A stretch of 56,815 nucleotides of DNA from a virus. Its lineage: Duplodnaviria > Caudoviricetes. How positions within the stretch are numbered: the stretch's first letter is position 1; each line of letters starts with the position of its first letter. The stretch spans positions 1 to 56,815 of the IMG/VR virus record IMGVR_UViG_3300031952_000019; one strand, 5' to 3'. Shown one piece after another: positions 29,999 through 48,487 of the stretch. The notes below the pieces were generated by a model. That model was given only the letters and a program-made list of their open reading frames with translations, was not told where the DNA came from and made no database searches. The position numbers and the translations under genes were made by a program.

Positions 29999-29999
29999 T

Positions 30000-30848: not shown

Positions 30849-30850
30849 AT

Positions 30851-31213
30851 ATGAGATATAGAAGAATCGTAAATGGGGAGCCTTCTTATGGACAAAGTCA
30901 ACAAGATTTTCTTCAAGGAATAGAAGCTGTAGGGCAAGCGATAGCAACTAGACTCAGCTTGTATTCTGGAGAATGGTGGGAGGATATCTATGACGGTCTT
31001 CCTGTCTGGACAAATTTATTGGGTTATGAGGGAGCTAATAAGACAAAAAGTAATGCAATAATAAAAGCTCGAATATTAGGTACAAAATTAGATAATGTGA
31101 GTTTAGTAACTTCAGTGGAGAATATCACAAATACTTATAATAGTGTTACAAGAAAATATACATTTAAAGGTTACGCAAAAAGTGTATATGGATATATTTC
31201 GATTAGTTCTTAA
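30851..31213 (+). CDS. baseplate wedge / sheath initiator (gp25-like)
   Basis: EAVGQAIATRL.L..GEWW.D...GLP. Confidence 0.8.
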   Translation: MRYRRIVNGEPSYGQSQQDFLQGIEAVGQAIATRLSLYSGEWWEDIYDGLPVWTNLLGYEGANKTKSNAIIKARILGTKLDNVSLVTSVENITNTYNSVTRKYTFKGYAKSVYGYISISS

Positions 31214-31228
31214 AAGGAGAAAGTAATT

Positions 31229-32431
31229 ATGGCATATTTTGACCCTTACATAGATTCTACTGGATTCCATTACCCGACGTATTCAGATATTCTAGAATAT
31301 CTGACGATTAATTATAAAAACATTTATGGGCAAGATGTTTATTTGGGAAACGATGCCGCCGATCATCAATGGATATCTATTTTTGCTCTTATGTTTTATA
31401 ACTCAATGGGAACTTTACAATTAGAGTACGCAAATAGAAGCCCACTTACAGCAGTTGGTGTAGCTTTAGACACTCTATTAAAAGATAATGGAATGACTAG
31501 AAAGCCTGCCACGTATTCTACTTGCTTGTTAGTGATTACAGGAAATGCAGGAACAGTCATCACGAATGGATTTGTAACAGATGTTAATGGGAATGTATGG
31601 GCTTTACCTACAATAACTGTAATAGGGGATGAAGGAACTGTTTCAATAAGTGCTACTTGCCAAACAAGCGGAGCGGTGACGGCTCTTCCGGGAACAATTA
31701 CAAGCATAACTACTCCTCAGTATGGTTGGATTTCTGTAAATAATGAGGTTGCGGCTATTGTTGGATTGCCCTATGAAACAGATGCTCAGTTCAGAGCAAG
31801 ACAGTCTCTAAGTACTCGGTTAGCTTCTCATACAATGCTTGCAGGAACATTTGCAGGAATTGCGGCGGTAGAAAATGTTACTAGGTATAATGTTCATGAA
31901 AATAGTACTAGTTATTTTGATGGAAAATCACCTCCTCATTCAATAGCGGCTGTTGTAGAAGGAGGAACTGATTTAGATGTTGCTACAGCCATTTTTGCAA
32001 ATAGGGGGATTGGTTGCGATACTTATGGAGTAGGAGAATACGGAGTAACGGTAACGGTAATAGATCCTGACACTTTAGCATCGATGGATATTAGTTTTTT
32101 CCGTCCTAACTACCTCCCAATTTATGTTGAAATGTATGTAACAAAACTTATTGGGTATACAGATGCTATAACTGGACAGATTAAGCAGGCTTTGGCGGAT
32201 TATCTTAATTCTTTGCAAATAGGTCAGAATTTAACGATATCTGCTTTATATGGAGCAGCTTTGGCAGTTATGCCTAATATACATGAACCTATGTTTTCAA
32301 TAACTTTAGTGGGAGCAGGGACAGACCCAATGGCTTTGTCAGGAAACGACATAATAGTTGATTTTAATGAAGTTACTCAGGGAATATTGGGTGACTCTCC
32401 TGAGCACATTATTTTGGTGGTGACAGTATGA
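31229..32431 (+). CDS. baseplate J / gp47 family protein
   Basis: ETDAQFRARQ, ENST, PHSIAAVVEGG. Confidence 0.9.
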   Translation: MAYFDPYIDSTGFHYPTYSDILEYLTINYKNIYGQDVYLGNDAADHQWISIFALMFYNSMGTLQLEYANRSPLTAVGVALDTLLKDNGMTRKPATYSTCLLVITGNAGTVITNGFVTDVNGNVWALPTITVIGDEGTVSISATCQTSGAVTALPGTITSITTPQYGWISVNNEVAAIVGLPYETDAQFRARQSLSTRLASHTMLAGTFAGIAAVENVTRYNVHENSTSYFDGKSPPHSIAAVVEGGTDLDVATAIFANRGIGCDTYGVGEYGVTVTVIDPDTLASMDISFFRPNYLPIYVEMYVTKLIGYTDAITGQIKQALADYLNSLQIGQNLTISALYGAALAVMPNIHEPMFSITLVGAGTDPMALSGNDIIVDFNEVTQGILGDSPEHIILVVTV

Positions 32432-33021
32432 TAGCAACAGTTGATAAATATTTGCAGTTAATAACTAGTCAGTACCAGAATTCTCCAAAGTTTTTGGCTT
32501 GGTTATCGACTCCATTAGAAATGTGGTATGGAATTCAAATGTTTGTGGAATCTATGTCAAATTCTTTTGATGTAGACACAGCGGTAGGAGCCCAATTAGA
32601 TACAGTAGGAGTTATATTAGGTCAAAACCGAACTCTTCCTTTTCAACCTACTGATGGCTCGTCAGCATATTTGGAGGATGCAACTTATAGGAAAGTTTTA
32701 AAGTTAAAAACAATGACCAATTATTGGGATGGTTCTCTAGCTGGTATTTATGCAGCTTGGAATTCAGTGTTTCCAGATGTAGATTTATTAATCACAGATA
32801 ATAAAGATATGACGGCAAGTGTGACAATAACAGGTTCATTGACACAAATTGTTATTGATATGATTCATCATGACTTAATTATTCCAAGACCTGAAGGTGT
32901 TGAGTATTGGTATGGAGGAACGATTGGAATTATTGCAATCTTTTCTTACGATTCTGATCTTCTTGATCCTGTATATTTCTTGGGTTATGATGAAGGTTAC
33001 TGGGATAGTACGATAAGTTAA
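32428..33021 (+). CDS. baseplate wedge protein (DUF2612)
   Basis: FDVDTAVGAQLD.VG..LG, D.TYR..LK, N.WDG, DN.DM, PRPEGV. Confidence 0.88.
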   Translation: MIATVDKYLQLITSQYQNSPKFLAWLSTPLEMWYGIQMFVESMSNSFDVDTAVGAQLDTVGVILGQNRTLPFQPTDGSSAYLEDATYRKVLKLKTMTNYWDGSLAGIYAAWNSVFPDVDLLITDNKDMTASVTITGSLTQIVIDMIHHDLIIPRPEGVEYWYGGTIGIIAIFSYDSDLLDPVYFLGYDEGYWDSTIS

Positions 33022-33037
33022 AAAGGAGGATTTATAA

Positions 33038-33820
33038 ATGGCTGGATCAAATAATTTTTTACAATTTGATGTTAATAAGAATAATATCCAAAGCATTGCG
33101 GATTATGTTGCAAGTACTTATCGAACAGGTGGAGTAACTTCTGGAGTTGCTCCTTCGAGTATTCACAATAGATTATTCTATCAATTAAGTACAATGGTGG
33201 CAGCTTTAGGAACAGCTCTTGCGAATAAGGGGTATACAGTTAGTGATGATAGCATAGCGAACTTAACAACTTTATTACAGAGCGTGATAGCGGTCAATGC
33301 TGATTGGAACGCAACTTCTGGGGTTGCTCAAATTTTAAATAAACCAACTATAAGTGCAGTTCCTCCGGGATCAATTTTAGTTTGGCCTACACAGATTGTT
33401 CCTTATGGATATTTAGAATGTAATGGAGCGTCAAAATTGATTACTAGTTATATTGATTTGTATAATGTTATTGGTTATCAATATGGGCAATTAGATTCCT
33501 CTCATTTTAATCTTCCTGATTATCGAGGATATTTTCTACGAGGTTGGGATCATGGAGCAAATAAAGATCCGGATAAATTAACTCGCTCAGATAGAGGTGA
33601 CGGAACCAGTGGAGATCATACTGGTACAAAAGAAGCAGATACTTTTAAGAGCCATGTTCATTCTAATAAACTTCAAGACATGTATCATCCATATAGTTTT
33701 GGTGGTGCTATGCCACAAGTAGGGGCAGGGGGAAATAATGGTAATTACAATACAGATGCTACAGGCGGAAATGAAACTAGACCAATAAACATAAATGTTA
33801 TGTATATTATCAAGACATAA
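33038..33820 (+). CDS. short tail fibre with tail-collar domain
   Basis: VPPGSI..W....PYGYLECNG, LPDYRGYFLRGWD, SHVH, ETRPININVMYIIK. Confidence 0.88.
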   Translation: MAGSNNFLQFDVNKNNIQSIADYVASTYRTGGVTSGVAPSSIHNRLFYQLSTMVAALGTALANKGYTVSDDSIANLTTLLQSVIAVNADWNATSGVAQILNKPTISAVPPGSILVWPTQIVPYGYLECNGASKLITSYIDLYNVIGYQYGQLDSSHFNLPDYRGYFLRGWDHGANKDPDKLTRSDRGDGTSGDHTGTKEADTFKSHVHSNKLQDMYHPYSFGGAMPQVGAGGNNGNYNTDATGGNETRPININVMYIIKT

Positions 33821-34436: not shown

Positions 34437-34924
34437 ATCCTAAGAATTTGGCGTTAATAGCTTTGTTGGTTGTCAGTGTTATGGCAAGTGGGTTATACCT
34501 TTGGCAACGTAACACCGTTATTAAGCAAAAAAGTGAAATTGGTCTTTTGAAAGTATCAAATGAGAGTTTACAAGGGCAGATCGAAGATTATAAAAAGAAT
34601 ATTCTTGCAATGAAGAAGGCACAAAAAGAACAACAGCAGATAGCAAATGATACAGCACAACTTTTATCGGATGTAAATAAAATGGTTGAATCAAAATGTA
34701 TAGGAGGAAAAGATGAAAAGAGTATTAGTGATATTACTTATTACTTTAATTCTAATGGCAAGCTGTCTTCCGGTAGTACAGAAGCCAACGGAAAAGCAGT
34801 GTCCAAAGCCGATCCGTCCCATATTAGTGGATGGACAACAAAACAACTAGTTGAAAATTATTTGGTGATGATTGATTATGTATTGAAATTGGAAAGGAGT
34901 ATTTCTTGTTATGAAAGCAATTAA
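34424..34924 (+). CDS. i-spanin (Rz-like)
   Basis: Single N-terminal TM segment, coiled coil, C-terminal helix with Cys; contains an embedded lipoprotein gene. Confidence 0.75.
   Translation: MWYLNPKNLALIALLVVSVMASGLYLWQRNTVIKQKSEIGLLKVSNESLQGQIEDYKKNILAMKKAQKEQQQIANDTAQLLSDVNKMVESKCIGGKDEKSISDITYYFNSNGKLSSGSTEANGKAVSKADPSHISGWTTKQLVENYLVMIDYVLKLERSISCYESN
34713..34850 (+). CDS. o-spanin (Rz1-like lipoprotein), embedded in the +1 frame
   Basis: Not in the ORF track. AGGAGG RBS; MKRVLVILLITLILMAS-C lipobox followed by Pro-rich LPVVQKPTEKQCPKPIRPILVDGQQNN. Confidence 0.8.
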   Translation: MKRVLVILLITLILMASCLPVVQKPTEKQCPKPIRPILVDGQQNN

Positions 34925-35153
34925 AGATATATTATTATCATTGTTTGGAGTAGGGGGCATCTCAATGATGAGATTTCTTACTTTCTTTGTGATAGTAGAT
35001 ATAATGTTGGTTTGGACAATATCCTGTGTTAAGGCTGGTTTTGTCATACAAGATATTCCAACAGGAGTCGCAGGAATTTTTCTTGCGATAATTGCGGGTA
35101 AATTAGGGCAAAGATTTGCCGAGAATGATGGAGAACAAAAAAAAGAGAAGTAA
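34911..35153 (+). CDS. holin-like membrane protein
   Basis: Two TM segments, charged C-terminus, within the lysis cassette. Confidence 0.6.
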   Translation: MKAIKDILLSLFGVGGISMMRFLTFFVIVDIMLVWTISCVKAGFVIQDIPTGVAGIFLAIIAGKLGQRFAENDGEQKKEK

Positions 35154-35156
35154 ATT

Positions 35157-35285
35157 ATGGAAGCTTTTTTAATTGGTATAGCAGTTGGAGCAATTGCGGC
35201 CAGTGTTGTGTTTTTCTTTATTTGGAAAAATAATAAAGCAAGGGTTAACGATGCATTGGAAATTGCATATACAAAGTTTAAGTAA
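35157..35285 (+). CDS. small single-TM protein (42 aa)
   Basis: Read manually: MEAFLIGIAVGAIAASVVFFFIWKNNK... Confidence 0.55.
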   Translation: MEAFLIGIAVGAIAASVVFFFIWKNNKARVNDALEIAYTKFK

Positions 35286-35296
35286 AAGGTATTTTT

Positions 35297-35815
35297 ATGA
35301 AGTCAATAATTATTATTGGATGTGCTCCCTGTTGGGAAGAAGATTTTGAAAATTTTAAAATTCTTGTTGATGAGTTTGATGTTATGGCGATAGGGGCTGA
35401 TTGTCCTTACGGTGGAGCCATCCAATATTTTGCCACTTACCATTTTGTGGATATCCCTATTTACAAGATGAGAAGAAAGAATGCGAATTGCAATTTAGAT
35501 TTTAAAGTCATTTGCCATAAAAATCAATTGGCGAGTGGAGAGAAGTTAGATGTTGACATAGTTGAGCTTCACAAGACTCCTTCGGGGTCTTCTTCTTTGT
35601 TGGGGGCGGCAGCGGCAATTCATCTTGGTTATAAAAATATAGTATTGTGTGGGTGTCCCATGGAAGGGGACAACAAGAACAAGATTACCCCCTATAATAC
35701 TTTTCAAATAGGGTGGGCAAGCAGACTTTCAGAAATAAAGAATTATGTTCGTTCCATGAGCGGTTATACAAAGGAGATTTTAGGAAGACCCACAAAAGAA
35801 TGGCTTGGTATTTAA
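35297..35815 (+). CDS. Rossmann-like protein resembling Maf/DUF115/sialyltransferase-fold transferases
   Basis: IIIIGCAP...SGSSSLL...AIHLGYKNIVLCGCPM. Confidence 0.5.
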   Translation: MKSIIIIGCAPCWEEDFENFKILVDEFDVMAIGADCPYGGAIQYFATYHFVDIPIYKMRRKNANCNLDFKVICHKNQLASGEKLDVDIVELHKTPSGSSSLLGAAAAIHLGYKNIVLCGCPMEGDNKNKITPYNTFQIGWASRLSEIKNYVRSMSGYTKEILGRPTKEWLGI

Positions 35816-35838
35816 TAATTGGTTAGGAGACGACCATA

Positions 35839-36390
35839 ATGATATTTAAAAGCATAGGAAAAAATGTTAAGATTTTTAATTCTGCAAAAATAATTTGCCC
35901 AGAAAACATAACAATTGGAGATGAAACTTTAATTGCTGATTTTTCATTTCTTTATGCAGTTGGTAAAGGAATAGAAATTGGTAATTTTTGCCATATAACT
36001 GAGCATGGGATAATTCAGGCTGGTGGTTTGGTAAAGATGGGGGACTTTTCTGCAATAGGCCCACGGACAACTATTTTGGCGGCTTCAGATGATTATGAAG
36101 GAAACGGATTTATTGGGTTGGCTGTGTTTGGTGATAAGTATCGGAAGCTATCATTTAAAGACGTCACTATCGGTCGTCATGCCCATATAGGAATGGGTTG
36201 TATTATAATGCCAGGGGTTACAATCGGGGATGGCTGTTCAATTGGTGCAGGAAGTTTAGTAACAAAAGATATGCCTGAATGGACGATTTGTTATGGGCAT
36301 CCTTGTAAACCAATAAAGGCAAAGCCAAGAGAAAAGCAATTACAGATGGAAAAGGAATTTTTAAACGGGTATTATGGGCATGCTTACTAG
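35839..36390 (+). CDS. left-handed beta-helix (hexapeptide repeat) acyltransferase
   Basis: VTIGRHAHIGMGCIIMPGVTIGDGCSIGAGSLVTKD..W....G.P. Confidence 0.9.
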   Translation: MIFKSIGKNVKIFNSAKIICPENITIGDETLIADFSFLYAVGKGIEIGNFCHITEHGIIQAGGLVKMGDFSAIGPRTTILAASDDYEGNGFIGLAVFGDKYRKLSFKDVTIGRHAHIGMGCIIMPGVTIGDGCSIGAGSLVTKDMPEWTICYGHPCKPIKAKPREKQLQMEKEFLNGYYGHAY

Positions 36391-36494
36391 GGTAGTATGA
36401 TGGTTGCAAACAGAGCATACTTTAACAAGTCCAACAATCCTGTGGTTGTTGGGTGGGACACTTGCCGAGCCTCTGCCCATATTTAAGGAATATT

Positions 36495-38066
36495 ATGGAT
36501 AATTTGTACACCCCACAATCGATTCCTAATTTTGATTATACCAAGGATTTAGGTGATCCTGGAAAAGCCCCTTATACTCGTGGGATTTACGCGAACATGT
36601 ACAAAGGAAAAGAATTTACGATGCGCCAATTAACGGGTTTCGGTTTGCCTGAAGATACTAACAAGAGAATGAAGTTCATGCTGGAGAATGGAGCTACCGG
36701 ATTGAGTGTGCTTTTTGATTTCCCAACTATTCAGATGTACGATTCTGATGATAAAGTTTCAGAGGGTCATGTAGGATTTTCTGGAGTATGTGTAGATTCG
36801 ATAGAGGATATGTACGATCTTTTTGAGGGGATCGACATTAAAAAAGTATCCATATCAATTGTAACACACTATCCAACGAACACTGCAATCTTATTTTCGA
36901 TGTTCTTGGCTATGGTAGAAGAGAAAAAGATTTCTTTCAGTGAGTTGAGAGGAAGTGTACAAAATGACGCCACGATGGAAGAGGTAGTAAGATGTGGAGC
37001 AGAATTTATTTCACCTAAGAATTGTTTCCGGATTCAATGCGATAACTTTGAATTCATAATGAAGAACATTCCCAAGTGGAATCCCATAACTTTGAACGGG
37101 TACAATTTAAGAGAGTGTGGGACATCGGCGATAACAGAAATGGCGGTGGCTATATCAAACGGAGTGGCAACGATCAATGAAATAGTCTTGAGAGGGTACA
37201 TGCCAAGTGAAATTGCCAGCAGGATTGCATTCTTTTGGTCTATCGATAGGAACTTCTTTGAAGAAGTTTCAAGGCTCCGTGCAGTGAGAAGAGTTTGGTA
37301 TAAGTTGATGAAATACAAGTTCAACATTACTGAAGGCAAAGGATTGTTGATGAGATGTCATGTTCAGACTTCTGGCATTTCCTTAACGAAACAAGAGCCT
37401 TTAAATAATATTGTTAGATCAGCCTACCAAGCTTTATCCGCTGTGTTTGGCGGTGTACAGTCATTGCACGTAGATTCATACGACGAAGCTTACTCAGTTC
37501 CTACAGAAGAAGCAGCTTTAATTTCCTTGAGAACACAGCAGATTATCCAAGATGAGACTGGTGTAACGGATGTGATTGACCCTCTGGGCGGGTCTTACTT
37601 TATAGAAGCTCTCACGAACAAAATTGAAAAAGAATTGCTTAATGAAATTAATAAAATAGAAAACAATGGAGGGTATATTTATCTGCTTCAATCTGGAAAG
37701 TTGCACAAAGAAGTTTCTGTCTTTGCATATGATCAACAGAAGAAAATGGAAGATGGCTCTATCCCTATTGTTGGAGTAAATAAATATAAGCGGCAAAATG
37801 TAAGTACACCCGTGAGCATGTTCCAATATCCCTTGGGGGTAGAAGAAAAACAAAAAGACAAGTTAATTTTATTGAGAGCCAAGAGAGACAATAAAAAAGT
37901 TAAGAAAACTTTGGCCGATCTTGAAAGAGTTTGTGGAACGAAAGAAAATGTAATTCCATATTGTATTGAGTGCGCCAAGGCAAGATGTACAGAAGGGGAA
38001 ATGTTTAAGTCGTTTAAGAATGCATTTGGGCTTTGGAAGGAGAAGAACGTATGGGTATGGCAGTAG
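36495..38066 (+). CDS. AdoCbl-dependent acyl-CoA mutase large (substrate-binding) subunit, methylmalonyl-CoA mutase family
   Basis: PYTRG.Y..MY, TMRQLTGFG, GLSVLFD.PT, YDSD, GSVQND, FFEEVSRLRA.R, HVQTSG.SL..QEP.NN..R, QSLH...YDEA...P, DPLGGSYFIEALT; no DxHxxG B12 domain; AAGGA RBS before ATG 36495. Confidence 0.93.
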   Translation: MDNLYTPQSIPNFDYTKDLGDPGKAPYTRGIYANMYKGKEFTMRQLTGFGLPEDTNKRMKFMLENGATGLSVLFDFPTIQMYDSDDKVSEGHVGFSGVCVDSIEDMYDLFEGIDIKKVSISIVTHYPTNTAILFSMFLAMVEEKKISFSELRGSVQNDATMEEVVRCGAEFISPKNCFRIQCDNFEFIMKNIPKWNPITLNGYNLRECGTSAITEMAVAISNGVATINEIVLRGYMPSEIASRIAFFWSIDRNFFEEVSRLRAVRRVWYKLMKYKFNITEGKGLLMRCHVQTSGISLTKQEPLNNIVRSAYQALSAVFGGVQSLHVDSYDEAYSVPTEEAALISLRTQQIIQDETGVTDVIDPLGGSYFIEALTNKIEKELLNEINKIENNGGYIYLLQSGKLHKEVSVFAYDQQKKMEDGSIPIVGVNKYKRQNVSTPVSMFQYPLGVEEKQKDKLILLRAKRDNKKVKKTLADLERVCGTKENVIPYCIECAKARCTEGEMFKSFKNAFGLWKEKNVWVWQ

Positions 38067-38683
38067 GAGTTCATCGTATAACTGAAGATTTTGAAAAGGC
38101 ATTGTGTGACTACACAGGGGCAAAGTATGCCATTGCTGTTGACAATCAGAGTAATGCTTTATTTCTTTCATTATCCTATGAGGGTGTAAATGGAAAAGAA
38201 ATATATATCCCAGCAAGAACATACCCTTCAGTTCCTTGTGAGATCATTCGTGCTGGAGGTAAGGTAAAATTTATCCAATCAAATAGAGAAACATTAAAGG
38301 GAGCTTATCAGTTAATTGGATCGAAAACATGGGATAGTGCATTGCGGTTTACTTTCAATATGTATATACCAGACACCTTTATGTGTATCTCTTTTACAGG
38401 TGCTTATAAGCATTTGAAGCTTTCAAAAGGTGGGGCAATACTTACCGATAATCATGACGCTTATCTTTGGTTTAAGAGGTCAAGATTTTCTGGTAGAAGA
38501 GAGTGTTCTTATTTTGATGATAATTTTGATATGCTAGGGATTAATTGTTATATGATGCCAGAGCTTGCAGCTAGAGGGCTTTTATTAATTCAGCAATTTT
38601 ATGATAGCAATAACAACCCAAAGAGTAATGAGGATATAGAATTGCCATATCCAGATTTAAGTAAATTTGAGGTGTACAAATGA
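38051..38683 (+). CDS. DegT/DnrJ/EryC1/StrS-family PLP aminotransferase, C-terminally shortened (~210 aa)
   Basis: FEKAL..Y.GAKYAIAV, WDSA, CISF...YKHL...KGGAILTD, G.N.YM..LAARG. Confidence 0.8.
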   Translation: MGMAVGVHRITEDFEKALCDYTGAKYAIAVDNQSNALFLSLSYEGVNGKEIYIPARTYPSVPCEIIRAGGKVKFIQSNRETLKGAYQLIGSKTWDSALRFTFNMYIPDTFMCISFTGAYKHLKLSKGGAILTDNHDAYLWFKRSRFSGRRECSYFDDNFDMLGINCYMMPELAARGLLLIQQFYDSNNNPKSNEDIELPYPDLSKFEVYK

Positions 38684-39384
38684 AAATTGAATTGTACACA
38701 TTTACATATAATGATGAAGATTTTCTTCCATTTTTTCTTCAATACTATTCACTTATTGTAGATAGGATGACGTTTATTGATAGTGGATCAACAGATAGAA
38801 CTTTGGAATTAATTAAAGATCATGAAGTGGTTCAGACAGGATTGACATGGTGGGATTGGGATAATTTGCATAGTATCAGGGATAGTATTTGGAGAGACTC
38901 AGAGTTTGATTTGATTTTCTTTCCTGATTTGGATGAGATATTTTATAAAGAGAATTTGAGACAATGGTTGGATGGGCACAGGTCAGCAATATACAAGATG
39001 AAAGGATATCAAATGGTATCAAGGGAGTTCCCTGAATTAGAGACTAATATATTGGATATTAAAAGAGGTTGTCCTTTGCCTCTGCATGATAAGTATACAA
39101 TATTTAACCCTAAAGCAGATTTGAAATTTGTTGACGCCCATAATATAGCAACTACTTCAAGAAACATTAACATGCTTGAAATTAAATTGTTGCATTATAA
39201 ATACCTAGGTGCTGACAATATGGTGAGAAGAGCAAACTTAATAATTGACAGAGTACCAAGGGGAAGTTTCAGTAAGAACATAGATGGGAATATTTTGGTT
39301 AAGTTCCCCGCATTTATAAAAACTAAGAGAGAGTATCAAATAGAAATTGAAGAGATGTTAGAAAAATCTATTGCGGTGATATAG
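38680..39384 (+). CDS. GT-A fold glycosyltransferase (GT2-like)
   Basis: YNDE..LPFFL.YY, IDSGSTD.T, PDLDE, LLHYKY. Confidence 0.85.
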   Translation: MKIELYTFTYNDEDFLPFFLQYYSLIVDRMTFIDSGSTDRTLELIKDHEVVQTGLTWWDWDNLHSIRDSIWRDSEFDLIFFPDLDEIFYKENLRQWLDGHRSAIYKMKGYQMVSREFPELETNILDIKRGCPLPLHDKYTIFNPKADLKFVDAHNIATTSRNINMLEIKLLHYKYLGADNMVRRANLIIDRVPRGSFSKNIDGNILVKFPAFIKTKREYQIEIEEMLEKSIAVI

Positions 39385-39386
39385 AA

Positions 39387-40121
39387 ATGATTACATCAGT
39401 TCCACATAATTACTATAAGAGAGCAGATTCAAAAGCTGATTGTAGTTTTGGGAATGTTCTTTTTACGATAGCTGGGATAATTGGAGTAGCCACAAAGAAT
39501 AGATATTCTTATGGGTTTTACCCTTGGGTGAATCAAGAATATTTTGTTAATAAATTACCGGAAGTAGGTAATGCACATTTTGATAATTTTCAGAACCCAA
39601 TAACATTTCAAGGGTTTGATGTTGGTTTTTGTGGATTTGATATTCCTGATAATGTAAAAATAAATGGTTATTTTGGGAGCGAGAAATATTTTGAACATTG
39701 TAAAAACTTAATAAGGTATTATTTTACAATGAAGGATTTGTGTGGTTGTTACAAAGATTGCATTATCATACATTGTAGAAATTATAACGATGATTGCGCT
39801 GGAATACAACCTTTGCCCAGAAAATATTATTTAGACGCTTTAAAAAAAATGCCAGATAAAAAGGTAATAGTGATAACTGATAATATAGATAAGGCGAAAG
39901 CCACAATAAAGAAGGATTTTATTTATGTGAGCAATACACCGATAATTGATTTTTATTTGCTTACTAAAGCTGAATATTTAATAATGGGTAATAGTACATT
40001 TAGTTGGTGGGGGGCTTGGTTGAGTAATGCAAAAACAGTTGCTCCTGCTAATTGGTATTCGGGAATATTTAAGGATTGTCCAACTAAAGATTTATATTGT
40101 AAAGAATGGGAGGTAATATAA
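39387..40121 (+). CDS. GT11 (alpha-1,2-fucosyltransferase-like) glycosyltransferase
   Basis: FGN.LF, GYF.SEKYF, IHCR, YY..AL, MGNSTFSWWGAWL. Confidence 0.85.
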   Translation: MITSVPHNYYKRADSKADCSFGNVLFTIAGIIGVATKNRYSYGFYPWVNQEYFVNKLPEVGNAHFDNFQNPITFQGFDVGFCGFDIPDNVKINGYFGSEKYFEHCKNLIRYYFTMKDLCGCYKDCIIIHCRNYNDDCAGIQPLPRKYYLDALKKMPDKKVIVITDNIDKAKATIKKDFIYVSNTPIIDFYLLTKAEYLIMGNSTFSWWGAWLSNAKTVAPANWYSGIFKDCPTKDLYCKEWEVI

Positions 40122-40618
40122 TGCCGATAAAAGAAGATTTTCTTAAAAAGTATTTTAACAATGTTTTTGTAGAAACAGGTTCGGGTGATGGGTCGGCAAT
40201 ACAAATAGCGGCTAATGCTGGATTTCGAGAAATTTATTCAATCGAGTTATCACCAGTATGGTACAAACATTGCCAGCAAAAGTTTAAAGTATTTGGTAAT
40301 GTAAAATTGATATTTGGAGATTCAAGGTTTGCTTTGGAACAAGTAATAAATAAAATACATGAGCCAATTACGTTTTGGCTTGACGCCCACTGTTCCGGGG
40401 GGGAAACTGCCGGTGGGGATATCATCCCTATATTTGATGAAATAAAAATAATAAGTAGACATAAGATAAAAACCCATACGATTGCTATTGATGATATGAG
40501 ATGTTGTAATAATCAAGATGAGATGATAAAGGAACTATTATTGATCAACTCCGATTATAAAATTATATATGAGGATAGTAGTCTGTTTAAAAACGATATT
40601 TTAGTAGCAAAGGTATGA
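40121..40618 (+). CDS. class I SAM-dependent methyltransferase-like protein
   Basis: FVETGS..G, YSIEL, GDS, FWLDAH.SG, IDDMR. Confidence 0.75.
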   Translation: MPIKEDFLKKYFNNVFVETGSGDGSAIQIAANAGFREIYSIELSPVWYKHCQQKFKVFGNVKLIFGDSRFALEQVINKIHEPITFWLDAHCSGGETAGGDIIPIFDEIKIISRHKIKTHTIAIDDMRCCNNQDEMIKELLLINSDYKIIYEDSSLFKNDILVAKV

Positions 40619-40619
40619 A

Positions 40620-41327
40620 ATGAAAATAGCTGTCGTAGTCGCCACTTATAAAAGAGCAGATGGTAAAACACCTTTTTATTTGAAGAGAATGTTAAATTCT
40701 GTTTTTTCTCAAAGACATTCTAACTTTGAAATATTTCTAGTTGGTGATTGTTATAGTGATGTAAAAGAATTAAAGGGAATAATTAGTCAGTACCCTTCAA
40801 ATAAACTTCACTGTTTTAATTTAGACAGGGCAGTGGAAAGAGAGAAATATACTGACAAGAATGTTCTGTGGTGCTGCGGTGGAACGGAAGCTGTTAATAT
40901 TGGTATTGACAGAGCTTTTGAAGCTGGGTTTGAATATATTAGCTTTTTAGATCACGACGATTATTGGACACCCTACCATTTGAGTAGTATTAATGAAGTG
41001 GTGAAATATATAGACGCGGATTGGGTATGTACAAAATCTACTTATGGAGATATAAGTATTTTACCCAAGATAGATAGAGAAGATCAATTTATTCCATTTC
41101 TTCCAACTCCCGGTGGAGTAATAAGGTCATCTGTTTGTTATAATGGAGTTTCTATTCCTGTGCGTCCAATTAATACTTTTGAAGCATATGGAGAAGTTAT
41201 TCCTGGAGATGCCGATTTATGGGATAGGATGGGAAAATATATTACTAAAAATAAATTAGTTAGTTACTTAGTAAATAAAGTTACATGTTATCATGAGGAA
41301 GAGGGGTATGCGTTAAATGCGAGTTGA
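40620..41327 (+). CDS. GT2-family glycosyltransferase
   Basis: IAVVVATY.R, SV..Q, FLDHDDYW...HL. Confidence 0.85.
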   Translation: MKIAVVVATYKRADGKTPFYLKRMLNSVFSQRHSNFEIFLVGDCYSDVKELKGIISQYPSNKLHCFNLDRAVEREKYTDKNVLWCCGGTEAVNIGIDRAFEAGFEYISFLDHDDYWTPYHLSSINEVVKYIDADWVCTKSTYGDISILPKIDREDQFIPFLPTPGGVIRSSVCYNGVSIPVRPINTFEAYGEVIPGDADLWDRMGKYITKNKLVSYLVNKVTCYHEEEGYALNAS

Positions 41328-42858
41328 TGAATGTACTACAGGAATTACGGTAACACATAATACGAAAGATTTAATTGAAAGAGCCTATAATTCTATTCGC
41401 AAGTTTCATCCTAATATGAAACTGATTATAGTAGATGGGTCAGATAGAGGGGATACATGTTTTACATATGTATGCGGGTTGGCTAGTGAGAATACAAAAG
41501 TATTTCATGTAGATAAAAATATTGGTCATGGAAGGGGACTTTGTGTTGGGATAGAAAGAGCTGAGACTCCATTTGCACTCATTTTTGATTCAGATATTGA
41601 GATGCTAAAATCTCCTATTCAATCAATGCTAGATATGATGGAAGAAGATACATATGGAGTTGGTTACACGGAGAAGACGGCTTTTGATGGGCATGAGTGG
41701 GGATGTAAGCCATCTCATTTATCTCAAGGCTGGATGAGGTATTTGCATCCTTATTTTTGTTTGTTACAATTAAAAGAGTATAAGAAGTATGCACCCTTTA
41801 TTCATCATGGCGCGCCTGCGGTAAATGCGATGCTCAGTGTCCATAGAAGTGGATTAGCAGACAAAGTGATAAAAGAGTTTCCAGGATTGGGACATTCTTC
41901 AGGGGTAGGTTGGGTTTGGAAAGGAGAGCCTAGAGAGTTTATTCGTCATGATACTTATGGAACAAGAGCAATTAGACGGTCAAAAGGATTGGAGGAAATT
42001 GAAGGTGTATGGGAAAGAGTTGTTGACTCTGGGGGGATAACTTGTATAACTTGTACAGGAGATCGTCATTTGACATTTTCTTTATGTGAAAAGTGGATGA
42101 ACAATCAGACCATAAAGCCTGACCAATGGATTGTAATTGATGATGGAAAAAGGCCAACAAGTCCTATTAAAAATGATTATATAAAATATGTTTATAGAGT
42201 TCCGACAGAAAGTGATCCTCAGTTTACTCTTTTATTAAATGTGAAGGAAGCCTTTAAGCATGTTAATGGTAGTAAAATATTATTTATTGAAGATGATGAA
42301 TATTATGCCCCAAATTACATCGAAAAAATGTTGAAGAGATTAAATGATTATGAATTAGTAGGAATAGGAAAAAGCAAATATTATCACTTACCTACTCGTA
42401 AATGGTACATTCATCCAAATATGGGTCATGCAAGTTTAGCGCAAACTGCCTTTAGGAGAAGTTTTTTAAAAGATGTAGTTCAAATTATTGATGGAGATTC
42501 TTTTTTAGATATAAGGATATGGGGTATAGTAAATGGACATGATGCAGCATTTAAAAATTCTGGGGAAGATACTAGAATTTCAAATGATGGGAGAGGCTTA
42601 GTATTTGAAGACAAAGAAAATTTGTATGTTGGTATGAAAGGGTTGCCGGGAAGAAATGGAATAGGAGCAGGGCATAAAGGAAACAATGATTGGTATCATT
42701 GTGACAAAGATGAGAAAGTTTTAAGGGATTGGATAAAAAAAGAAGAGGATTTAAAAGTTTATACTGGAATTTTACAAAGTGTTATGGGAGTCCAAACATC
42801 TTATTCAAAAGTAAGATGTTTTAATAAAGGGGAGAAGTTATCTGCAATTAGTAGATAA
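41317..42858 (+). CDS. two-domain GT2-like glycosyltransferase
   Basis: Domain 1: IIVDGS, NIGHGRG, IFDSD. Domain 2: ITCTGDR, WIVIDDG, FIEDDEYY. Confidence 0.85.
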   Translation: MRVDECTTGITVTHNTKDLIERAYNSIRKFHPNMKLIIVDGSDRGDTCFTYVCGLASENTKVFHVDKNIGHGRGLCVGIERAETPFALIFDSDIEMLKSPIQSMLDMMEEDTYGVGYTEKTAFDGHEWGCKPSHLSQGWMRYLHPYFCLLQLKEYKKYAPFIHHGAPAVNAMLSVHRSGLADKVIKEFPGLGHSSGVGWVWKGEPREFIRHDTYGTRAIRRSKGLEEIEGVWERVVDSGGITCITCTGDRHLTFSLCEKWMNNQTIKPDQWIVIDDGKRPTSPIKNDYIKYVYRVPTESDPQFTLLLNVKEAFKHVNGSKILFIEDDEYYAPNYIEKMLKRLNDYELVGIGKSKYYHLPTRKWYIHPNMGHASLAQTAFRRSFLKDVVQIIDGDSFLDIRIWGIVNGHDAAFKNSGEDTRISNDGRGLVFEDKENLYVGMKGLPGRNGIGAGHKGNNDWYHCDKDEKVLRDWIKKEEDLKVYTGILQSVMGVQTSYSKVRCFNKGEKLSAISR

Positions 42859-43414: not shown

Positions 43415-46400
43415 ATGAGTACATCGTATTTTGGATTTATAGCATTAACAGGAGGAGGTGCAGGAGCTCTTGATAAATTGGATGGGGCTATTCTTGTAAA
43501 TGAGGATTATGCAAATGGAGTTGTAGGCGTTTATAATTATGTCTATCAATTAATTGCTGCCTCTGGTGCTACTCCTGATGGTGAAAATGTAATTATCCCT
43601 ATTACAAATCCTGGAACGAAAAGATGGCTTTTAAGAAACAAAAGTTCATCTGTGAATACAGGTGATGCGGCTTCTCTACCAATCGGTGGAGGAACATTAA
43701 CAGGTGACCTGAATGTCGGCACTACTTCAGCCGGGCATAATGTTGCGTTAAGAGCCACTGAAGGTTCGGAAATGTGTCCAGCCTTGGAAGCCGTCAATTG
43801 GACTTGCACAAATGGTTGGAGCGCTGGAAGCGGTAATCTTATTAGAGTAAATAATGCTTCTACGGGAACAGCAACTCCGTCAGGTACATTTGATGTAGTA
43901 GCCGGGAAGACTTATAAAGTAACAATGACTGTTTCTGCGGTTTCAGGGGTTATTACTTATCATATTGGCAGTTCATTAGGAAGGCAATTAACCACTACTA
44001 CTTTTACAGATTATATTAATGCAATTACAACAGGCAAGATGGTTTTTACTGGAATTGCAGGGACAACTTGTACTGTTACAGCACTAAGTATTAAAGAATT
44101 AACCACGGCAACAGGAGATTTACGAGTTTATGGTAGAACAATTGTTGGTAGTGGTGTCTGGTCAGATAATGATTCAAAGGCTATTGATATTCTTCCACAA
44201 GGTGATATTGGAGTTCGTGGAATAAGGTATAATTTAACTCCCAATGATCAAGAGTTTGCCGAAGGGAAAACGTATTGGGACTCTATTTGGAAAACACTGA
44301 ATGTTCAGACAACAACAGATATTACATTACCAGTAGGACAAACAGATTTACGCAGAGTTTATAACAATACAGGTTCGATTTTATACAAAGGGAAAACCGT
44401 ATATTCAAATGGCATTCATGCTGATGGAGATAGTTCTACTGTTACAGTAGTATTAGCAAGAGCAAACTCAGACACTACATCGGATGTGTTAGGGGTAACT
44501 ACACAAGATATCCCGATAGCATCTTATGGGTTTGTTACTGTTCGAGGGAATATAAACAATATTGATACAACAGTGATAACCGCTTCTGCTGGCGATATTC
44601 TTTATTTAAGTGCGGCTACTGCAGGGGAATTAGTAAATACTATTCCTGTAGCTCCAAATCTAGAAGTCAGAATTGGAAGACTCATTATAGATGACGCTAC
44701 TACTGGAAGAATTAATGTTAGAATTTCTCAAGCCTATAAATTGAACGACTTAGTAGATGTTGCCGCTCCCTCTCCATCTGCAGGTCAATTATTAAAGTTT
44801 GATGGAGTGTCATGGGTTGCTTCGGATACTTCGACAGTTGCGGGAGCTGGAACAGTTAATCTCTTTTTAACTGATCAAGATATTCCAATAGAAGGAATGA
44901 CACGAGCGGCTGCTTGTGTGGTTACTTGGACAGCCCACGGTCTTGCAACTGGTGCTTATGTACAAATGATCGAAATCACTCAAGCGGAGTGGACAGCGCT
45001 TAATTGGACATTAGCCACACCTTTATTTCACCAAGTAACGTATCTTAGTGATAATACGTTTTCTATTCCAGTGAATACTTCTGGGTATGCAGCGGATTAT
45101 AATGCAACTGTTGATCCGGGAACTATCTCCTCTGGGAAATTACAAGATACACCAAATGTATCGATTGTGACACAAACTGATTATGCTCAATCAACAGGCA
45201 GTGTAGAAGTTTTGATTGACACTTATACATCATATATTCTAAATAGAACAACTATTGATAGTGGATTATGGGAATTTCATACCTGGTGCTATGCGTCATC
45301 CATAACGAATGTAAATACGATTGTAATAAGAGTTTACAAGAGAAATACTGCAGGAACTGAAACACAATTATTTTCGGTAGAGACTTCAGATTTAGGTACT
45401 GCGAGTATAGAGTCCATAATACCTAGTCCTCAACCAGCGTATACGATTTTAACCACTGATTATCTTGTGATTAAGTATTTTGCCAAGTCAGATCGAGGGG
45501 TGGGGAATTATCGTACACTGTATATAACTCACAATGGCTCAACTGTATATTCTTATATTAGAACTCCCATTACAGTATTGCATGATGAGTTAGCGGGTTT
45601 GAATATTGGCCCTTATTCACATTTATCAGCAATAGAAAAAGCCTCGGCTATTAGAAATGCAACGGCAGCACAAGATGGAAAAATGACGGCTGCATATGCA
45701 ACTAAATTAGATGGTATTGAGAAGGCAAGTGTGGCAGAAGACCTAGCTGGAATAAACGATGCTAAGTTCGTTACTCCATTAGGGCTAGCATCCGGGAATG
45801 GCGCAACGTTACCAGTAACACCATATAAAGGGCAATTGTTTTTACACACACCAACAGGAAGAAACATTTTGTTTCAGTACATTGGAGGTGTATGGTATCC
45901 TCAAGAGTCTTTTGGAGCAATCACTATATATGTCCACTCAACGGGAACAGATGATTTAGAGCACGGGACAGCAACAGGAACCAGCGCATTTAAAACAATA
46001 ACTTACGCTTACTCAATACTCCCTTATCTCACTGGTGATAAAGTAACTATAAACTTGTCAGGTGAGTCTTTCACTGAAAACCTTAGTTTTACCCCACGTG
46101 CTACTAATGTTGAGTTTGTGGGTACAACAAGTGTTGCTTATTCTGGTACAGCAACAGGTGGGGCAAATGGTTCTGGCGCTACTCCAATATCTGTAACGGG
46201 AACCTTTACTGCTAATGTATACAATCATAAGATGATCAAATTCACAAGTGGAGCAAATACTGGGTATATCCGTCCTGTTGGGTTAACTACTACAACAACT
46301 CTTTATGTTGTCGGTGCGGCCTTACCTGCTACACCCGGGAATGGTGATACATACCAGATATTAAGTTTAGATACTACTCTTGTTGGTACGATTAGATGCA

Positions 46401-48487
46401 CACATTATGAAAACCAGTTAGCTAGAGGTTCTAGTGGAATTACTGTTTTTTCAACTATAAATGTAAACAGTGTTGGTGCAGAGAATATGGTTTATGCCAA
46501 TTATTCTTTGATGATGTTAGTTAATTCGGTTTTTACAGATACTAATGCTACTTATGCTATTGCAGCTGATAATAGTAGTTGGATTGCTTTTGCGGCATCG
46601 GTTTATGTTAGTACATCAACCAGTACTGTTGTTGGTTTTGAGGCTGACTGGCTAGGACAGATAGATTTGTATAATAGTATCATAGTTGGAAAAGATGGGA
46701 CTACAGGTATTGGCATAAAAACTACATCCGGCGGAAAAATCTCAATTGAAACTAATGAAATAAAAGGTTGGTTAATAGGAACAAAATCAATATCTGGTGG
46801 TTATGTTAATTCGTTCGATGGTGGGGTAACTTCCTTCTTCCATGGCAACGGAACAGCATTGCAAGTAGATTTAAATGGGGTTATGGACATACTTCCATCT
46901 TCGGCTAGTATTATTTATGGGACAAAATTAGATGGTACGGCTGATGCGAACACCAACAATTATATTAATAATACTATTGCAACAGCCGCAGAAATAACCA
47001 CAGGCACAGCGGCAAAAAACGTTACAGCAGATCAGTTGGCTTTGTCTTCACCAACTTTTTTAGAATTGACTACAAATGCCGCTGAAGTGACAACAACTTT
47101 ATATAATAAGTATATTCCTATTATTTCTGATTCGGCAGGTGTTTTTATTCGTAGAATGACGTATGCTTATACCGGTTCATATGTAGCGTCAGCTGGTGTA
47201 GGCATTGGTAATGGAGCTATACAGTATAATACTGGCTTGTCCCCCTATGTTTTTGGGATAAATTCTGGTCAATATAATATTGGCAACTACTTAACTGCTT
47301 TTGGAAGTTTAGCAGGGCAATGTAATATAGGTAATAACTGCACTGGTATAGGCAATTCTGTTTTAAAAAATAATCAGGGTGTATCTATCTCAACATTAGG
47401 GATGCAGTCTGGACTTTATAATGTTGGGGCGACTTGTAGTGGGTTAGGTGCTTATTCTATATATAGGAATAATTGGGATGATGTTATTGCTATTGGAGAA
47501 CAATCAACATCTAGTGGTTTTATTCAAGACGCAGCTACAGACCAAACTTTTACAGACGCAGAAGTAACGCCGGGGGTAATTACGTTCGCAGGAGCGCATG
47601 GTTTTGGTACTACTGGTAAAATGGTTAATCTATATTTTACAACAACAGCAGGAACACCACCAACTGGATTGGTAACAACATCTAGATATCAATTTTCGAT
47701 AACTTCTTCCACTATAATGACTTATGCAACCGATGCCGCAAAAGCAATTACAGTTGGGATTGGTGGAACTCCGATCACGATAGATACAGCAACAGCGGTC
47801 AGCAATGTTGGTGGAAAATTAACTATCACTTCAGCTACACATGGATTCAGCAATGGTTACAATCTTTATTATCTGAATGGTGGGGGCACATCCATTGGTG
47901 GATTGACAACAGCCACACATTATTTTGTCACCAACCAAAGTGCAAACACTTTTGAACTTGAAGCGACTTACGGTGGCGGCTCAATCAATTATGAATCAGC
48001 AGGTATTGGGGCAGCGCATACATTTACTTTCTGCGGGTCACAAGATTTTGCTGGAAAACTTACAAACTCTGTAAATATTATTGATTCAATTTCCATCGGG
48101 AATAGAGTTAATGCCACTAAAGCACATCAAGTTATCTTGGGTTCTTCGACCATTACAGAAACAGCATTACGAGGACATATCACATTACTTGATACCCCAG
48201 ACATAGTTTCGTCCGCTGGAGCAATTAGTATTCTTACTGCAATCACTCATGTAGTCACTGATGGTGTTGGTACTGTTTTGACTTTAGCAAATGGGGTTGA
48301 GGGACAACAAAAAATTATTGTGTTAAAGACTTTAACGTCAGCCGGGCATTCAGATGTGATAACACCTGCTGGTGGAGGAATGGGATTTACAACTATAACA
48401 ATGGCGGCATTGGGTGCAACTGTAACTCTGCTTTATACTAATAGTAAGTGGGCTACTATCAGTGCGATTAATGTGACAACAGCATAA
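43415..48487 (+). CDS. giant mosaic fibre/adhesin (1690 aa)
   Basis: Thr/Gly/Ala/Ser-rich; L.DL.DV...GQLL.FDG..W fibre repeat, VVT..AHGL.TG modules, beta-helix-like segment, N..IG repeats. Confidence 0.75.
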   Translation: MSTSYFGFIALTGGGAGALDKLDGAILVNEDYANGVVGVYNYVYQLIAASGATPDGENVIIPITNPGTKRWLLRNKSSSVNTGDAASLPIGGGTLTGDLNVGTTSAGHNVALRATEGSEMCPALEAVNWTCTNGWSAGSGNLIRVNNASTGTATPSGTFDVVAGKTYKVTMTVSAVSGVITYHIGSSLGRQLTTTTFTDYINAITTGKMVFTGIAGTTCTVTALSIKELTTATGDLRVYGRTIVGSGVWSDNDSKAIDILPQGDIGVRGIRYNLTPNDQEFAEGKTYWDSIWKTLNVQTTTDITLPVGQTDLRRVYNNTGSILYKGKTVYSNGIHADGDSSTVTVVLARANSDTTSDVLGVTTQDIPIASYGFVTVRGNINNIDTTVITASAGDILYLSAATAGELVNTIPVAPNLEVRIGRLIIDDATTGRINVRISQAYKLNDLVDVAAPSPSAGQLLKFDGVSWVASDTSTVAGAGTVNLFLTDQDIPIEGMTRAAACVVTWTAHGLATGAYVQMIEITQAEWTALNWTLATPLFHQVTYLSDNTFSIPVNTSGYAADYNATVDPGTISSGKLQDTPNVSIVTQTDYAQSTGSVEVLIDTYTSYILNRTTIDSGLWEFHTWCYASSITNVNTIVIRVYKRNTAGTETQLFSVETSDLGTASIESIIPSPQPAYTILTTDYLVIKYFAKSDRGVGNYRTLYITHNGSTVYSYIRTPITVLHDELAGLNIGPYSHLSAIEKASAIRNATAAQDGKMTAAYATKLDGIEKASVAEDLAGINDAKFVTPLGLASGNGATLPVTPYKGQLFLHTPTGRNILFQYIGGVWYPQESFGAITIYVHSTGTDDLEHGTATGTSAFKTITYAYSILPYLTGDKVTINLSGESFTENLSFTPRATNVEFVGTTSVAYSGTATGGANGSGATPISVTGTFTANVYNHKMIKFTSGANTGYIRPVGLTTTTTLYVVGAALPATPGNGDTYQILSLDTTLVGTIRCTHYENQLARGSSGITVFSTINVNSVGAENMVYANYSLMMLVNSVFTDTNATYAIAADNSSWIAFAASVYVSTSTSTVVGFEADWLGQIDLYNSIIVGKDGTTGIGIKTTSGGKISIETNEIKGWLIGTKSISGGYVNSFDGGVTSFFHGNGTALQVDLNGVMDILPSSASIIYGTKLDGTADANTNNYINNTIATAAEITTGTAAKNVTADQLALSSPTFLELTTNAAEVTTTLYNKYIPIISDSAGVFIRRMTYAYTGSYVASAGVGIGNGAIQYNTGLSPYVFGINSGQYNIGNYLTAFGSLAGQCNIGNNCTGIGNSVLKNNQGVSISTLGMQSGLYNVGATCSGLGAYSIYRNNWDDVIAIGEQSTSSGFIQDAATDQTFTDAEVTPGVITFAGAHGFGTTGKMVNLYFTTTAGTPPTGLVTTSRYQFSITSSTIMTYATDAAKAITVGIGGTPITIDTATAVSNVGGKLTITSATHGFSNGYNLYYLNGGGTSIGGLTTATHYFVTNQSANTFELEATYGGGSINYESAGIGAAHTFTFCGSQDFAGKLTNSVNIIDSISIGNRVNATKAHQVILGSSTITETALRGHITLLDTPDIVSSAGAISILTAITHVVTDGVGTVLTLANGVEGQQKIIVLKTLTSAGHSDVITPAGGGMGFTTITMAALGATVTLLYTNSKWATISAINVTTA

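Follow-up and report, generated by a model that had tools for sequence, protein, structure and literature searches.

Acyl-coenzyme A (CoA) mutases occur in catabolism, in carbon assimilation and in a few antibiotic pathways; to our knowledge, none has been described in a virus or in a glycan pathway. Virion-glycosylation islands of phages are represented by the glycosyltransferase clusters of mycobacteriophages. In the pathway to anthrose, a sugar whose side chain carries a tertiary alcohol, the N-acyltransferase AntD uses 3-hydroxy-3-methylbutyryl-CoA as donor. The product of the anthrose operon decorates the surface fibre protein BclA (PMC10050317). Here we analyze a gene cassette of a left-handed beta-helix (LbH) acyltransferase, an acyl-CoA mutase large subunit and a DegT-like protein in the IMG/VR virus record IMGVR_UViG_3300031952_000019. 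The whole record, called the window in the following, comprises 56,815 bases (linear, CheckV 69%). It belongs to an uncultured sediment phage and contains the terminase, portal, protease, major head protein and tail sheath genes of a myovirus. We assign a probability of about 0.5 to the reading that this cassette makes an N-acylated amino-sugar glycan and that the mutase supplies a branched acyl-CoA to the AntD-like LbH enzyme, borrowing the vitamin B12-binding subunit of the host. By analogy, the cassette probably follows the logic of the anthrose operon and decorates the virion fibres.

The mutase open reading frame (ORF) extends from 36453 to 38066 on the plus strand. Translation probably starts at the ATG at 36495, which follows AAGGA, and yields a protein of 523 residues (36495..38066), the large, substrate-binding TIM-barrel subunit of an acyl-CoA mutase (PF01642, E 1.4e-162). 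The match covers positions 9-512 of the 512 positions of PF01642, i.e., the full-length TIM-barrel domain, and the protein passed the TIGR00641 model with 529.9 bits at a cut-off of 303.8. Thus, the intact large subunit of about 523 residues from the methylmalonyl-CoA mutase family that the first-pass annotation had read from this stretch is indeed present. The protein failed the methylmalonyl-CoA mutase equivalog model NF006944 (439.5 bits, cut-off 876). Its top match in the PDB was HcmA, the large subunit of 2-hydroxyisobutyryl-CoA mutase (4r3u, E 2e-123), which ranked above the human and Propionibacterium methylmalonyl-CoA mutases. No PHROGs family matched the mutase, and the phage GenBank collection contained only two distant mutase matches (34% and 25% identity). 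Scanning viral contigs with the single mutase protein gave no match; an alignment-based scan gave three loci.

The pocket of the window mutase is formed by Leu46, Leu73, Arg166 and Asn204. In the alignment with methylmalonyl-CoA mutase, Leu46 corresponds to Tyr89, Arg166 to Arg207 and Asn204 to His244 (P. shermanii numbering), which we take to be the substrate-pocket residues of that enzyme. The chains 1req and 5req (Tyr89Phe) differ exactly at the Leu46 column. HcmA has Ile, Gln and His at the positions of Leu46, Arg166 and Asn204 and Asp at that of Leu73; Ile, Asp and Gln of 4r3u are presumably its pocket residues. The HcmA motifs RQI, STDFD and MA-Q read RQL, SVLFD and VVR in the window. 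The window mutase carries neither the complete Tyr89/Arg207/His244 set of methylmalonyl-CoA mutase sensu stricto nor the Ile/Asp/Gln set of the HcmA type. Among representatives at 50% identity the classical signatures Tyr-Ala-Arg-His, Phe-Ala-Gln-His and Ile-Asp-Gln-His were all present. Within the clade of the window mutase the pocket Leu/Ile - Leu/Ile - Arg - Asn was found in 47 of 48 rows, the exception being the phage contig L002, where the Arg is missing. The tree split this clade (49 rows) from the other split mutases with full support and a long branch.

The gene at 35839..36390, upstream of the mutase, encodes an LbH acyltransferase of 183 residues (Hexapep, E 9e-16). When the PDB was searched with this protein, the seven top matches were the entries 3vbi-3vbp (E 6e-28 to 8e-27, residues 3-176). 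Residues 3-176 align to residues 32-201 of 3vbk (E 6e-28). Entry 3vbn is described as AntD, the N-acyltransferase of the anthrose pathway (PMC6031040). The second solved family, the maltose/galactoside O-acetyltransferases, started at E 7e-13, which leaves a gap of 15 orders of magnitude in E value. One of the 776 database homologues was named dTDP-4-amino-4,6-dideoxy-D-glucose acyltransferase by its source; with every NCBIfam LbH model the protein scored below the cut-off. Based on its full-length similarity the LbH protein is classified as an AntD-like sugar N-acyltransferase. Consequently, the analogy to the anthrose operon that had been drawn from the gene arrangement is apt, since the partner upstream of the mutase is specifically AntD-like.

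In order to place the mutase, 163 fetched loci were surveyed together with the window; some of these represent one contig taken from two collections. The long form was observed in 140 rows and consists of a mutase of about 586 residues with a B12-binding small subunit encoded immediately downstream. It occurs in metagenome-assembled genomes (MAGs) labelled Thermodesulfobacteriota, Actinomycetota, Chloroflexota, Bathyarchaeia and others. Thirteen rows showed neither partner, and every one of these has at most 465 nucleotides after the mutase. A ligase of 468 residues was found in 85 of the 117 long-form loci with at least 2100 nucleotides downstream, in 83 of them directly after the small subunit. 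The ligase of L016 matched 2-hydroxyisobutyryl-CoA synthetase best in the PDB (E 1.8e-163, versus 5e-70 for phenylacetate-CoA ligase). Further recurring neighbours of the long form were a MeaB-like GTPase (19 loci), a GntR regulator (32 loci) and a short-chain dehydrogenase/reductase (20 loci). A hcmAB/rcmAB-hcl-meaH layout with an upstream GntR gene has been published (PMC7176365), and the neighbourhood of the long form corresponds to this layout. The arrangement of a ligase of the 2-hydroxyisobutyrate-CoA ligase (HCL) type, MeaB-like protein and GntR regulator was seen in these cellular sister forms, not at the phage locus. The loci L005-L163 (e.g., L016:7800-12356) represent a widespread clade of two-subunit mutases from anaerobes with the Leu/Ile - Leu/Ile - Arg - Asn pocket. 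Its enzymes may be 2-hydroxyisobutyryl-CoA mutases of a third type, or may act on a related acid instead. For the acetone-pathway mutase of Desulfosarcina/Desulfococcus, subunits of 64.7 and 14.5 kDa have been reported (PMC7888143). A direct link to this enzyme was not made; the subunits in the Desulfosarcina MAG L081 have 66.3 and 15.4 kDa and lie in a different neighbourhood.

The window mutase belongs to an orphan short form of 512-523 residues, which lacks about 65 N-terminal residues of the two-subunit forms. The 16 orphan rows are monophyletic (SH-aLRT support 96). Their members are the window, the viral contigs L001-L003, the metagenome contigs L084 and L131 and the bacterial MAG locus L004. 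The mutases of L129, L140 and L142 retain part of the N-terminal extension. Those of L129 and L140 branch together (SH-aLRT 98) and were joined next to the long forms (SH-aLRT 84).

An LbH gene of the window subfamily immediately precedes the mutase gene in the window, L001-L004, L085, L129, L131 and L140, and is one methyltransferase gene away from it in L142/L173. The coupling of this mutase clade to an LbH enzyme, proposed from a single locus, was therefore found to recur, with the pair present in 10 loci overall. L085 contains only the start of the mutase and was left out of the counted rows; L084 has no room for an LbH gene upstream of its mutase. The LbH proteins of the linked loci match that of the window at E 4e-83 to 7e-103, and the LbH and mutase genes mostly overlap by 8-20 nucleotides. 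A reduced DegT-like gene (mini-DegT) lies 3' of the mutase in five of the six orphan loci with sufficient room, but not in L004. The window phage is related to L140 and L001, whose baseplate genes keep its gene order and are 45-69% identical to its own; L140 is of the window phage lineage itself (50-69% identity, syntenic). L002/L003, L129 and L142 share only the cassette genes with the window, and L004 shares only the LbH-mutase pair. Thus, the LbH and mutase genes travel together among unrelated genomes. In L004 (2927-11521), a deltaproteobacterial MAG, the LbH-orphan pair stands beside MBOAT, Acyl_transf_3, a SASA-type esterase and fn3 proteins, and no phage genes were found within 8 kb of the pair. 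L001 additionally encodes a PhaJ-like (R)-specific enoyl-CoA hydratase (E 2e-28).

Some relatives of the window cassette retain the B12-binding subunit. The cassette of L129 consists of LbH, mutase, B12-binding subunit, a second LbH and a full-length DegT protein (394 residues, E 5e-81). In L142/L173, a viral record rated 24% complete, the order is LbH, TylF-like methyltransferase, mutase, small subunit and full DegT (368 residues). L140 shows orf172, LbH, mutase and small subunit, after which the contig ends. The DxHxxG motif is intact in the small subunits of all three. Thus, judged by this motif, the mutase linked to LbH is a true B12 enzyme in these relatives. L129 is a phage contig that also encodes a class II-type ribonucleotide reductase and a phage PDDEXK nuclease. 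The reductase (L129:1946-4624) has a TSCPD domain and a weak match to the class II (B12-dependent) N-terminal domain, which suggests a wider reliance on host cobamides.

The orphan mutase gene is clearly under purifying selection. Its reading frame was intact across the orphan loci seen, and the ratio of nonsynonymous to synonymous substitution rates (dN/dS), in the orphan pairs that allowed its computation, was 0.06 for the window and L001, 0.08 for L002 and L003 and 0.135 for L001 and L004, with dS saturated. The LbH and mini-DegT genes behaved alike. In 148 two-subunit relatives 235 alignment columns are at least 95% conserved, and 182 of these were retained in at least 80% of 14 orphans. 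Among the retained columns are those of the barrel-face motifs and of the DEA-motif residue Glu331. We take this Glu and the cofactor-side barrel residues to function in adenosylcobalamin chemistry.

The mini-DegT gene (38051..38683, ORF from 38033) encodes 210 residues (210-216) and matches PF01041 at E 1.7e-15. The complete fold-type I architecture of about 360-400 residues was not found in this protein: compared with the DegT protein of L129, it begins without the N-terminal part, shows two large internal gaps and retains only a small part of the C-terminal domain. Asp95 and Lys120 are invariant; Lys120 occurs in 30 of 30 family members and coincides in the alignments with the SF..K lysine of solved DegT enzymes (TKNL in 7b0d) and of the L129 DegT (MKN). 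The family is large, with 7513 homologues of about 210 residues, the best 120 of which are 72-95% identical and 207-227 residues long, and its ESM Atlas clusters are 95-100% viral. Family members were located at 38051-38683 in the window, L001:11554-12195 and L174:5539-6171. Mini-DegT is a general component of phage islands and not a specific partner of the mutase. A role as replacement of the small subunit was dropped, since its members by far outnumber the mutase and LbH and mini-DegT are adjacent in L174, which has no mutase. Of the sugar aminotransferase that the first-pass annotation had called here, the DegT-like character with a Lys of the pyridoxal phosphate type stood; a regular enzyme of this class did not, as the protein is reduced to 210 residues and belongs to a common phage family. 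For this reduced form, a function as sugar aminotransferase is therefore only putative.

From the gene identities, their linkage, the mutase clade and the purifying selection we infer the following pathway, its reliance on a host subunit and its target. The host would supply a nucleoside diphosphate (NDP)-4-keto-6-deoxyhexose, which a DegT-type enzyme, here mini-DegT, would aminate. The AntD-like LbH enzyme would acylate the amine of the sugar, and the glycosyltransferases would attach the acylated sugar. The mutase would turn a common host acyl-CoA into a branched acyl-CoA not normally held by the host. The phage encodes only the large subunit, which would therefore depend on a small subunit of the host for cobalamin binding. 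The nearest precedent is the actinonin cluster, where only the large subunit ActD is encoded and the small-subunit gene is described elsewhere in the genome (PMC5719088).

Our best guess for the mutase step is the conversion of (R)-3-hydroxybutyryl-CoA to 2-hydroxyisobutyryl-CoA, which would give an acyl product with a tertiary alcohol, like the anthrose side chain. This substrate pair is suggested by the links to HcmA and HCL, by the short-chain dehydrogenase/reductase and MeaB neighbours of the long form and by the PhaJ-like hydratase of L001. Published assays have combined PhaJ with Hcm in just this manner (PMC11599936). Nevertheless, we hold the pair at less than even odds because the retained Arg166 argues for a carboxylated substrate. 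An IaaGH-like aryl- or alkyl-succinyl-CoA mutase (PMC8360864), considered because of the "PaaK-like" ligase of the long form, was set aside since this ligase is much closer to HCL than to PaaK. The virion is the presumed target on account of position, as the cassette lies inside the virion modules directly before a Thr-rich fibre gene. A more specific version, in which a B12 radical rearrangement with a captured host subunit serves solely a glycan and places a 2-hydroxyisobutyryl "nor-anthrose"-type sugar on the tail fibres, appears possible and still rather doubtful.

Several observations weigh against the proposed branched acyl-CoA supply. Arg166 aligns with Arg207 of methylmalonyl-CoA mutase, HcmA has Gln at this position, and an Arg suits a carboxylated substrate better than 2-hydroxyisobutyryl-CoA. 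The mutase tree was built without the characterised RcmA or Desulfococcus enzymes, which we count on the same side. Neither the window nor any of G001-G003 contained the B12-binding domain PF02310; G003 has a completeness rating of 100%. A clade-specific hidden Markov model of the small subunit, run at full sensitivity on six frames of six orphan loci, gave a best E of about 1; in L129 and L140 the same model gave 1e-54 to 1e-60. Neither MeaB nor a 4,6-dehydratase (PF16363) nor a nucleotidyltransferase (PF00483) was found in five viral records. Consequently, the B12 chemistry needs host parts, as the phage has neither B12-binding subunit nor MeaB, and the NDP-4-keto-6-deoxy sugar would have to come from the host, as nucleotidyltransferase and 4,6-dehydratase are missing. 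The bacterial genome G004, which carries an orphan, encodes two mutases with adjacent small subunits, both outside the clade, and no two-subunit member of the window mutase clade. All orphans have lost the N-terminal extension and carry the fixed changes Ser167Cys and Phe208 to Cys, Ala or Ser by the pocket, adjoining Arg166 and Glu207. Further orphan-specific changes are His32Tyr, Gln92His, Pro135Ser and Phe411 to a small residue. Judged by the loss of the extension and the pocket-adjacent changes, the orphans could no longer bind a small subunit. Mini-DegT covers only positions 26-99 of the 360 of PF01041 and lacks about 40% of a normal DegT protein.

The distribution of the LbH gene counts on the same side. 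An LbH-alignment scan of viral contigs gave 10 loci, of which five lie in records with a clade mutase (L140, L001, L002, L003, L142) and five have no mutase at all (L171, L172, L174, L175, L176). In L171 (5001-6317) and L172 (4866-6320) the AntD-like LbH is fused to a GT2 domain and followed by mini-DegT. L174 shows LbH, mini-DegT, methyltransferase and GT2, and L175 and L176 show a P22-type coat gene, full DegT, LbH and double GT2. Thus, the mutase is an accessory to the AntD-like module and not its core.

The losses in the orphans could also mean that the protein works without cofactor, as an acyl-CoA-binding or -processing partner of LbH that, for example, selects or presents the acyl-CoA. 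Small subunit and N-terminal extension were lost together in an old monophyletic clade of 16 rows (SH-aLRT 96), a relative that is 100% complete has no small subunit, the orphan-specific substitutions flank Arg166 and Glu207, the orphan of L002 lacks the Arg and G004 offers no cognate small subunit of the clade. However, the cofactor-side barrel residues remained invariant across the orphans despite saturated synonymous sites, and the sister cassettes retain the B12 subunit. We know of no precedent for a mutase large subunit that acts as cofactor-free acyl-CoA partner, and regard this explanation as unlikely, though a serious competitor. Alternatively, the mutase could be a functionless remnant after deletion of the small subunit, with LbH using a common acyl-CoA. 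The missing small subunit, the reduced DegT and the five viral LbH loci without mutase agree with a remnant, but a decayed gene would hardly show intact frames in every orphan locus seen and a dN/dS of 0.06-0.14 with saturated dS, and the orphans form a deep clade with members from unrelated phages and from a bacterium. Such decay is quite improbable.

The same chemistry might serve a different target, namely a polymer of the host envelope instead of the virion, for receptor masking or superinfection exclusion. The bacterial pair in L004 is in fact neighboured by enzymes of surface-polysaccharide acylation (MBOAT, Acyl_transf_3, SASA-type esterase). The phage cassettes, though, are situated in virion modules, here between the baseplate and collar genes and the fibre of 1690 residues and in L175 right after the P22-type coat gene, and among the scanned ORFs, a part of those in the window, no flippase, polymerase or lipid-carrier transferase was found. 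We consider modification of the envelope unlikely. An ordinary auxiliary gene that converts methylmalonyl-CoA to succinyl-CoA and boosts propionate or tricarboxylic acid (TCA) cycle flux would fit the family name and the retained Arg166. A literature search for methylmalonyl-CoA mutase as a viral auxiliary gene yielded, among other papers, one preprint that merely lists the enzyme among the auxiliary genes of archaeal proviruses (10.1101/2025.11.27.691053). Against this function stand the replacement of Tyr89 and His244 by Leu and Asn, the failed equivalog model NF006944 and the glycan genes around every orphan locus. Homologs in ordinary propionate operons, which had been named as a finding that would contradict the glycan proposal, were not found; the cellular relatives adjoin an HCL-like ligase, not propionate genes. 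The mutase is embedded in a glycan cassette, and the earlier view that it is not an auxiliary gene of central metabolism was borne out; a role in propionate metabolism is very improbable.

The gene order given by the first-pass annotation, LbH - mutase - DegT-like followed by several glycosyltransferases, was confirmed, with coordinates and gene calls right, and the DegT-like ORF (38033/38051-38683) indeed overlaps the stop of the mutase. It had also asked for read continuity across 35-39 kb. In run X1, possibly the source sample, the stretch 34800-39600 lies on one Logan contig of 57.5 kb with 0 differences, and identical short low-depth contigs were found in sediment runs of two other studies. 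X3 record 21 spans 37994-38178, i.e., the junction of the mutase and DegT-like genes, and is identical. Because of the X1 contig without differences, the identical pieces in two other studies and the same gene order in independent contigs, the region is not a chimera or assembly artefact, and the suspicion of a chimeric assembly did not hold.

The cassette is placed within the tail module. Baseplate, DUF2612 and tail-collar genes at 27354-33820 precede it, and all genes from orf172 to the fibre-like protein are on the plus strand, in the order orf172, LbH, mutase, DegT-like, weak GT2-like, GT11, orf170, GT2 and double GT2. The gene orf172 (35297..35815) belongs to a phage-only family and matched nothing in Pfam, PHROG or NCBIfam. 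Its homologues are located upstream of LbH in L001 and L140; the family thus precedes the cassette in three related phages. Its ESM Atlas clusters are 88-100% viral, and the closest named family was MptE-like (score 0.89, TM about 0.69). This possible likeness to MptE/DUF115 (Maf-type) proteins is a weak lead. A GT2-like glycosyltransferase gene follows mini-DegT at 38680..39384 (Glyco_tranf_2_4, E 1.4e-05; phrog_13126, E 2.8e-09). Its Pfam match of 25.9 bits is below the cut-off of 27.5, and homologues hold the equal position in L001 and L131.

A GT11-like glycosyltransferase is encoded at 39387..40121 (PF01531, E 1e-11; phrog_2644, E 3.4e-33) and has a homologue in L001. The next gene, orf170 (40106..40618), matched nothing in Pfam, PHROGs, NCBIfam or the PDB; from its glycine-rich N-terminal motif it is possibly a methyltransferase. 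In L001 the PhaJ-like hydratase occupies this slot. Two GT2 genes follow, one at 40620..41327 (PF00535, E 5.9e-10) and one at 41317..42858 for a two-domain protein of 513 residues (PF00535, E 4.2e-21, two stretches). Double-GT2 proteins come after the cassette in L002, L003, L175 and L176 as well. A small phrog_5417 protein separates the double GT2 gene from the fibre-like protein of 1690 residues (43415..48487), which is rich in Thr (14.3%), Gly (11.0%), Ala (9.5%) and Ser (8.2%) and matched no PHROG family. Directly downstream of the cassette and past the tail-collar and baseplate genes, this protein is a candidate glycan acceptor. Further 3', a protein of 733 residues with RCC1 repeats is encoded at 50822-53023 (phrog_4219, E 9e-85). 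In the window, scans for promoters (59 sites, 62.4 expected) and terminators (10, 7.4 expected) stayed at the level of chance, and a tRNA scan found none.

If the more specific version with the 2-hydroxyisobutyryl sugar is true, the window would encode the first acyl-CoA mutase of a virus, its glycan pathway would be the first with a B12-dependent step, and it would represent a natural source of 2-hydroxyisobutyryl groups. If the proposed pathway is right, phages of anoxic sediments would diversify their surface sugars by radical B12 chemistry with a viral enzyme that depends on a cofactor-binding subunit of the host. The cassette would also provide a compact gene set for tertiary hydroxyacyl sugars. 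The orphan clade is a natural experiment on a mutase barrel with a foreign small subunit, or with none.

The first-pass annotation knew of no described phage system of this kind, and our literature search on acyl-CoA mutases with phages agreed, returning unrelated papers only. Among the closest described systems is the anthrose operon antABCD of the Bacillus cereus group, which unites parallel functions, namely the modification of an acyl-CoA, a DegT-type step, N-acylation by an LbH enzyme and glycosyl transfer. In antABCD the acyl-CoA step is performed by a hydratase, whereas the phage cassette has a B12 mutase subunit for this step, a DegT protein of only 210 residues and a location in a tail module. 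With HcmAB/RcmAB, HCL and MeaH the window mutase shares HcmA as top solved homologue, and its cellular sisters share the operon layout. In contrast to HcmA (Ile/Asp/Gln/His) the phage pocket is Leu/Leu(Ile)/Arg/Asn, and unlike HcmAB/RcmAB the phage form has no small subunit and stands in a biosynthetic, not catabolic, context. Recruitment of an HCM-like mutase for an unusual acyl unit has been described for ActD and MatB-MatQ of the actinonin and matlystatin clusters (PMC5719088). Those enzymes, however, belong to natural-product clusters of actinomycetes and use hexylmalonyl-CoA, with no glycan and no virus involved. As in the mycobacteriophage islands, the genes for soluble glycosyltransferases and sugar tailoring are embedded in virion modules; unlike the phage virion-glycosylation islands in the literature searched, the window cassette contains an acyl-CoA mutase. 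Judged by its genes, the cassette thus appears to combine known kinds, namely anthrose-type pathways, phage glycan islands and biosynthetic HCM-like mutases, in a new form.

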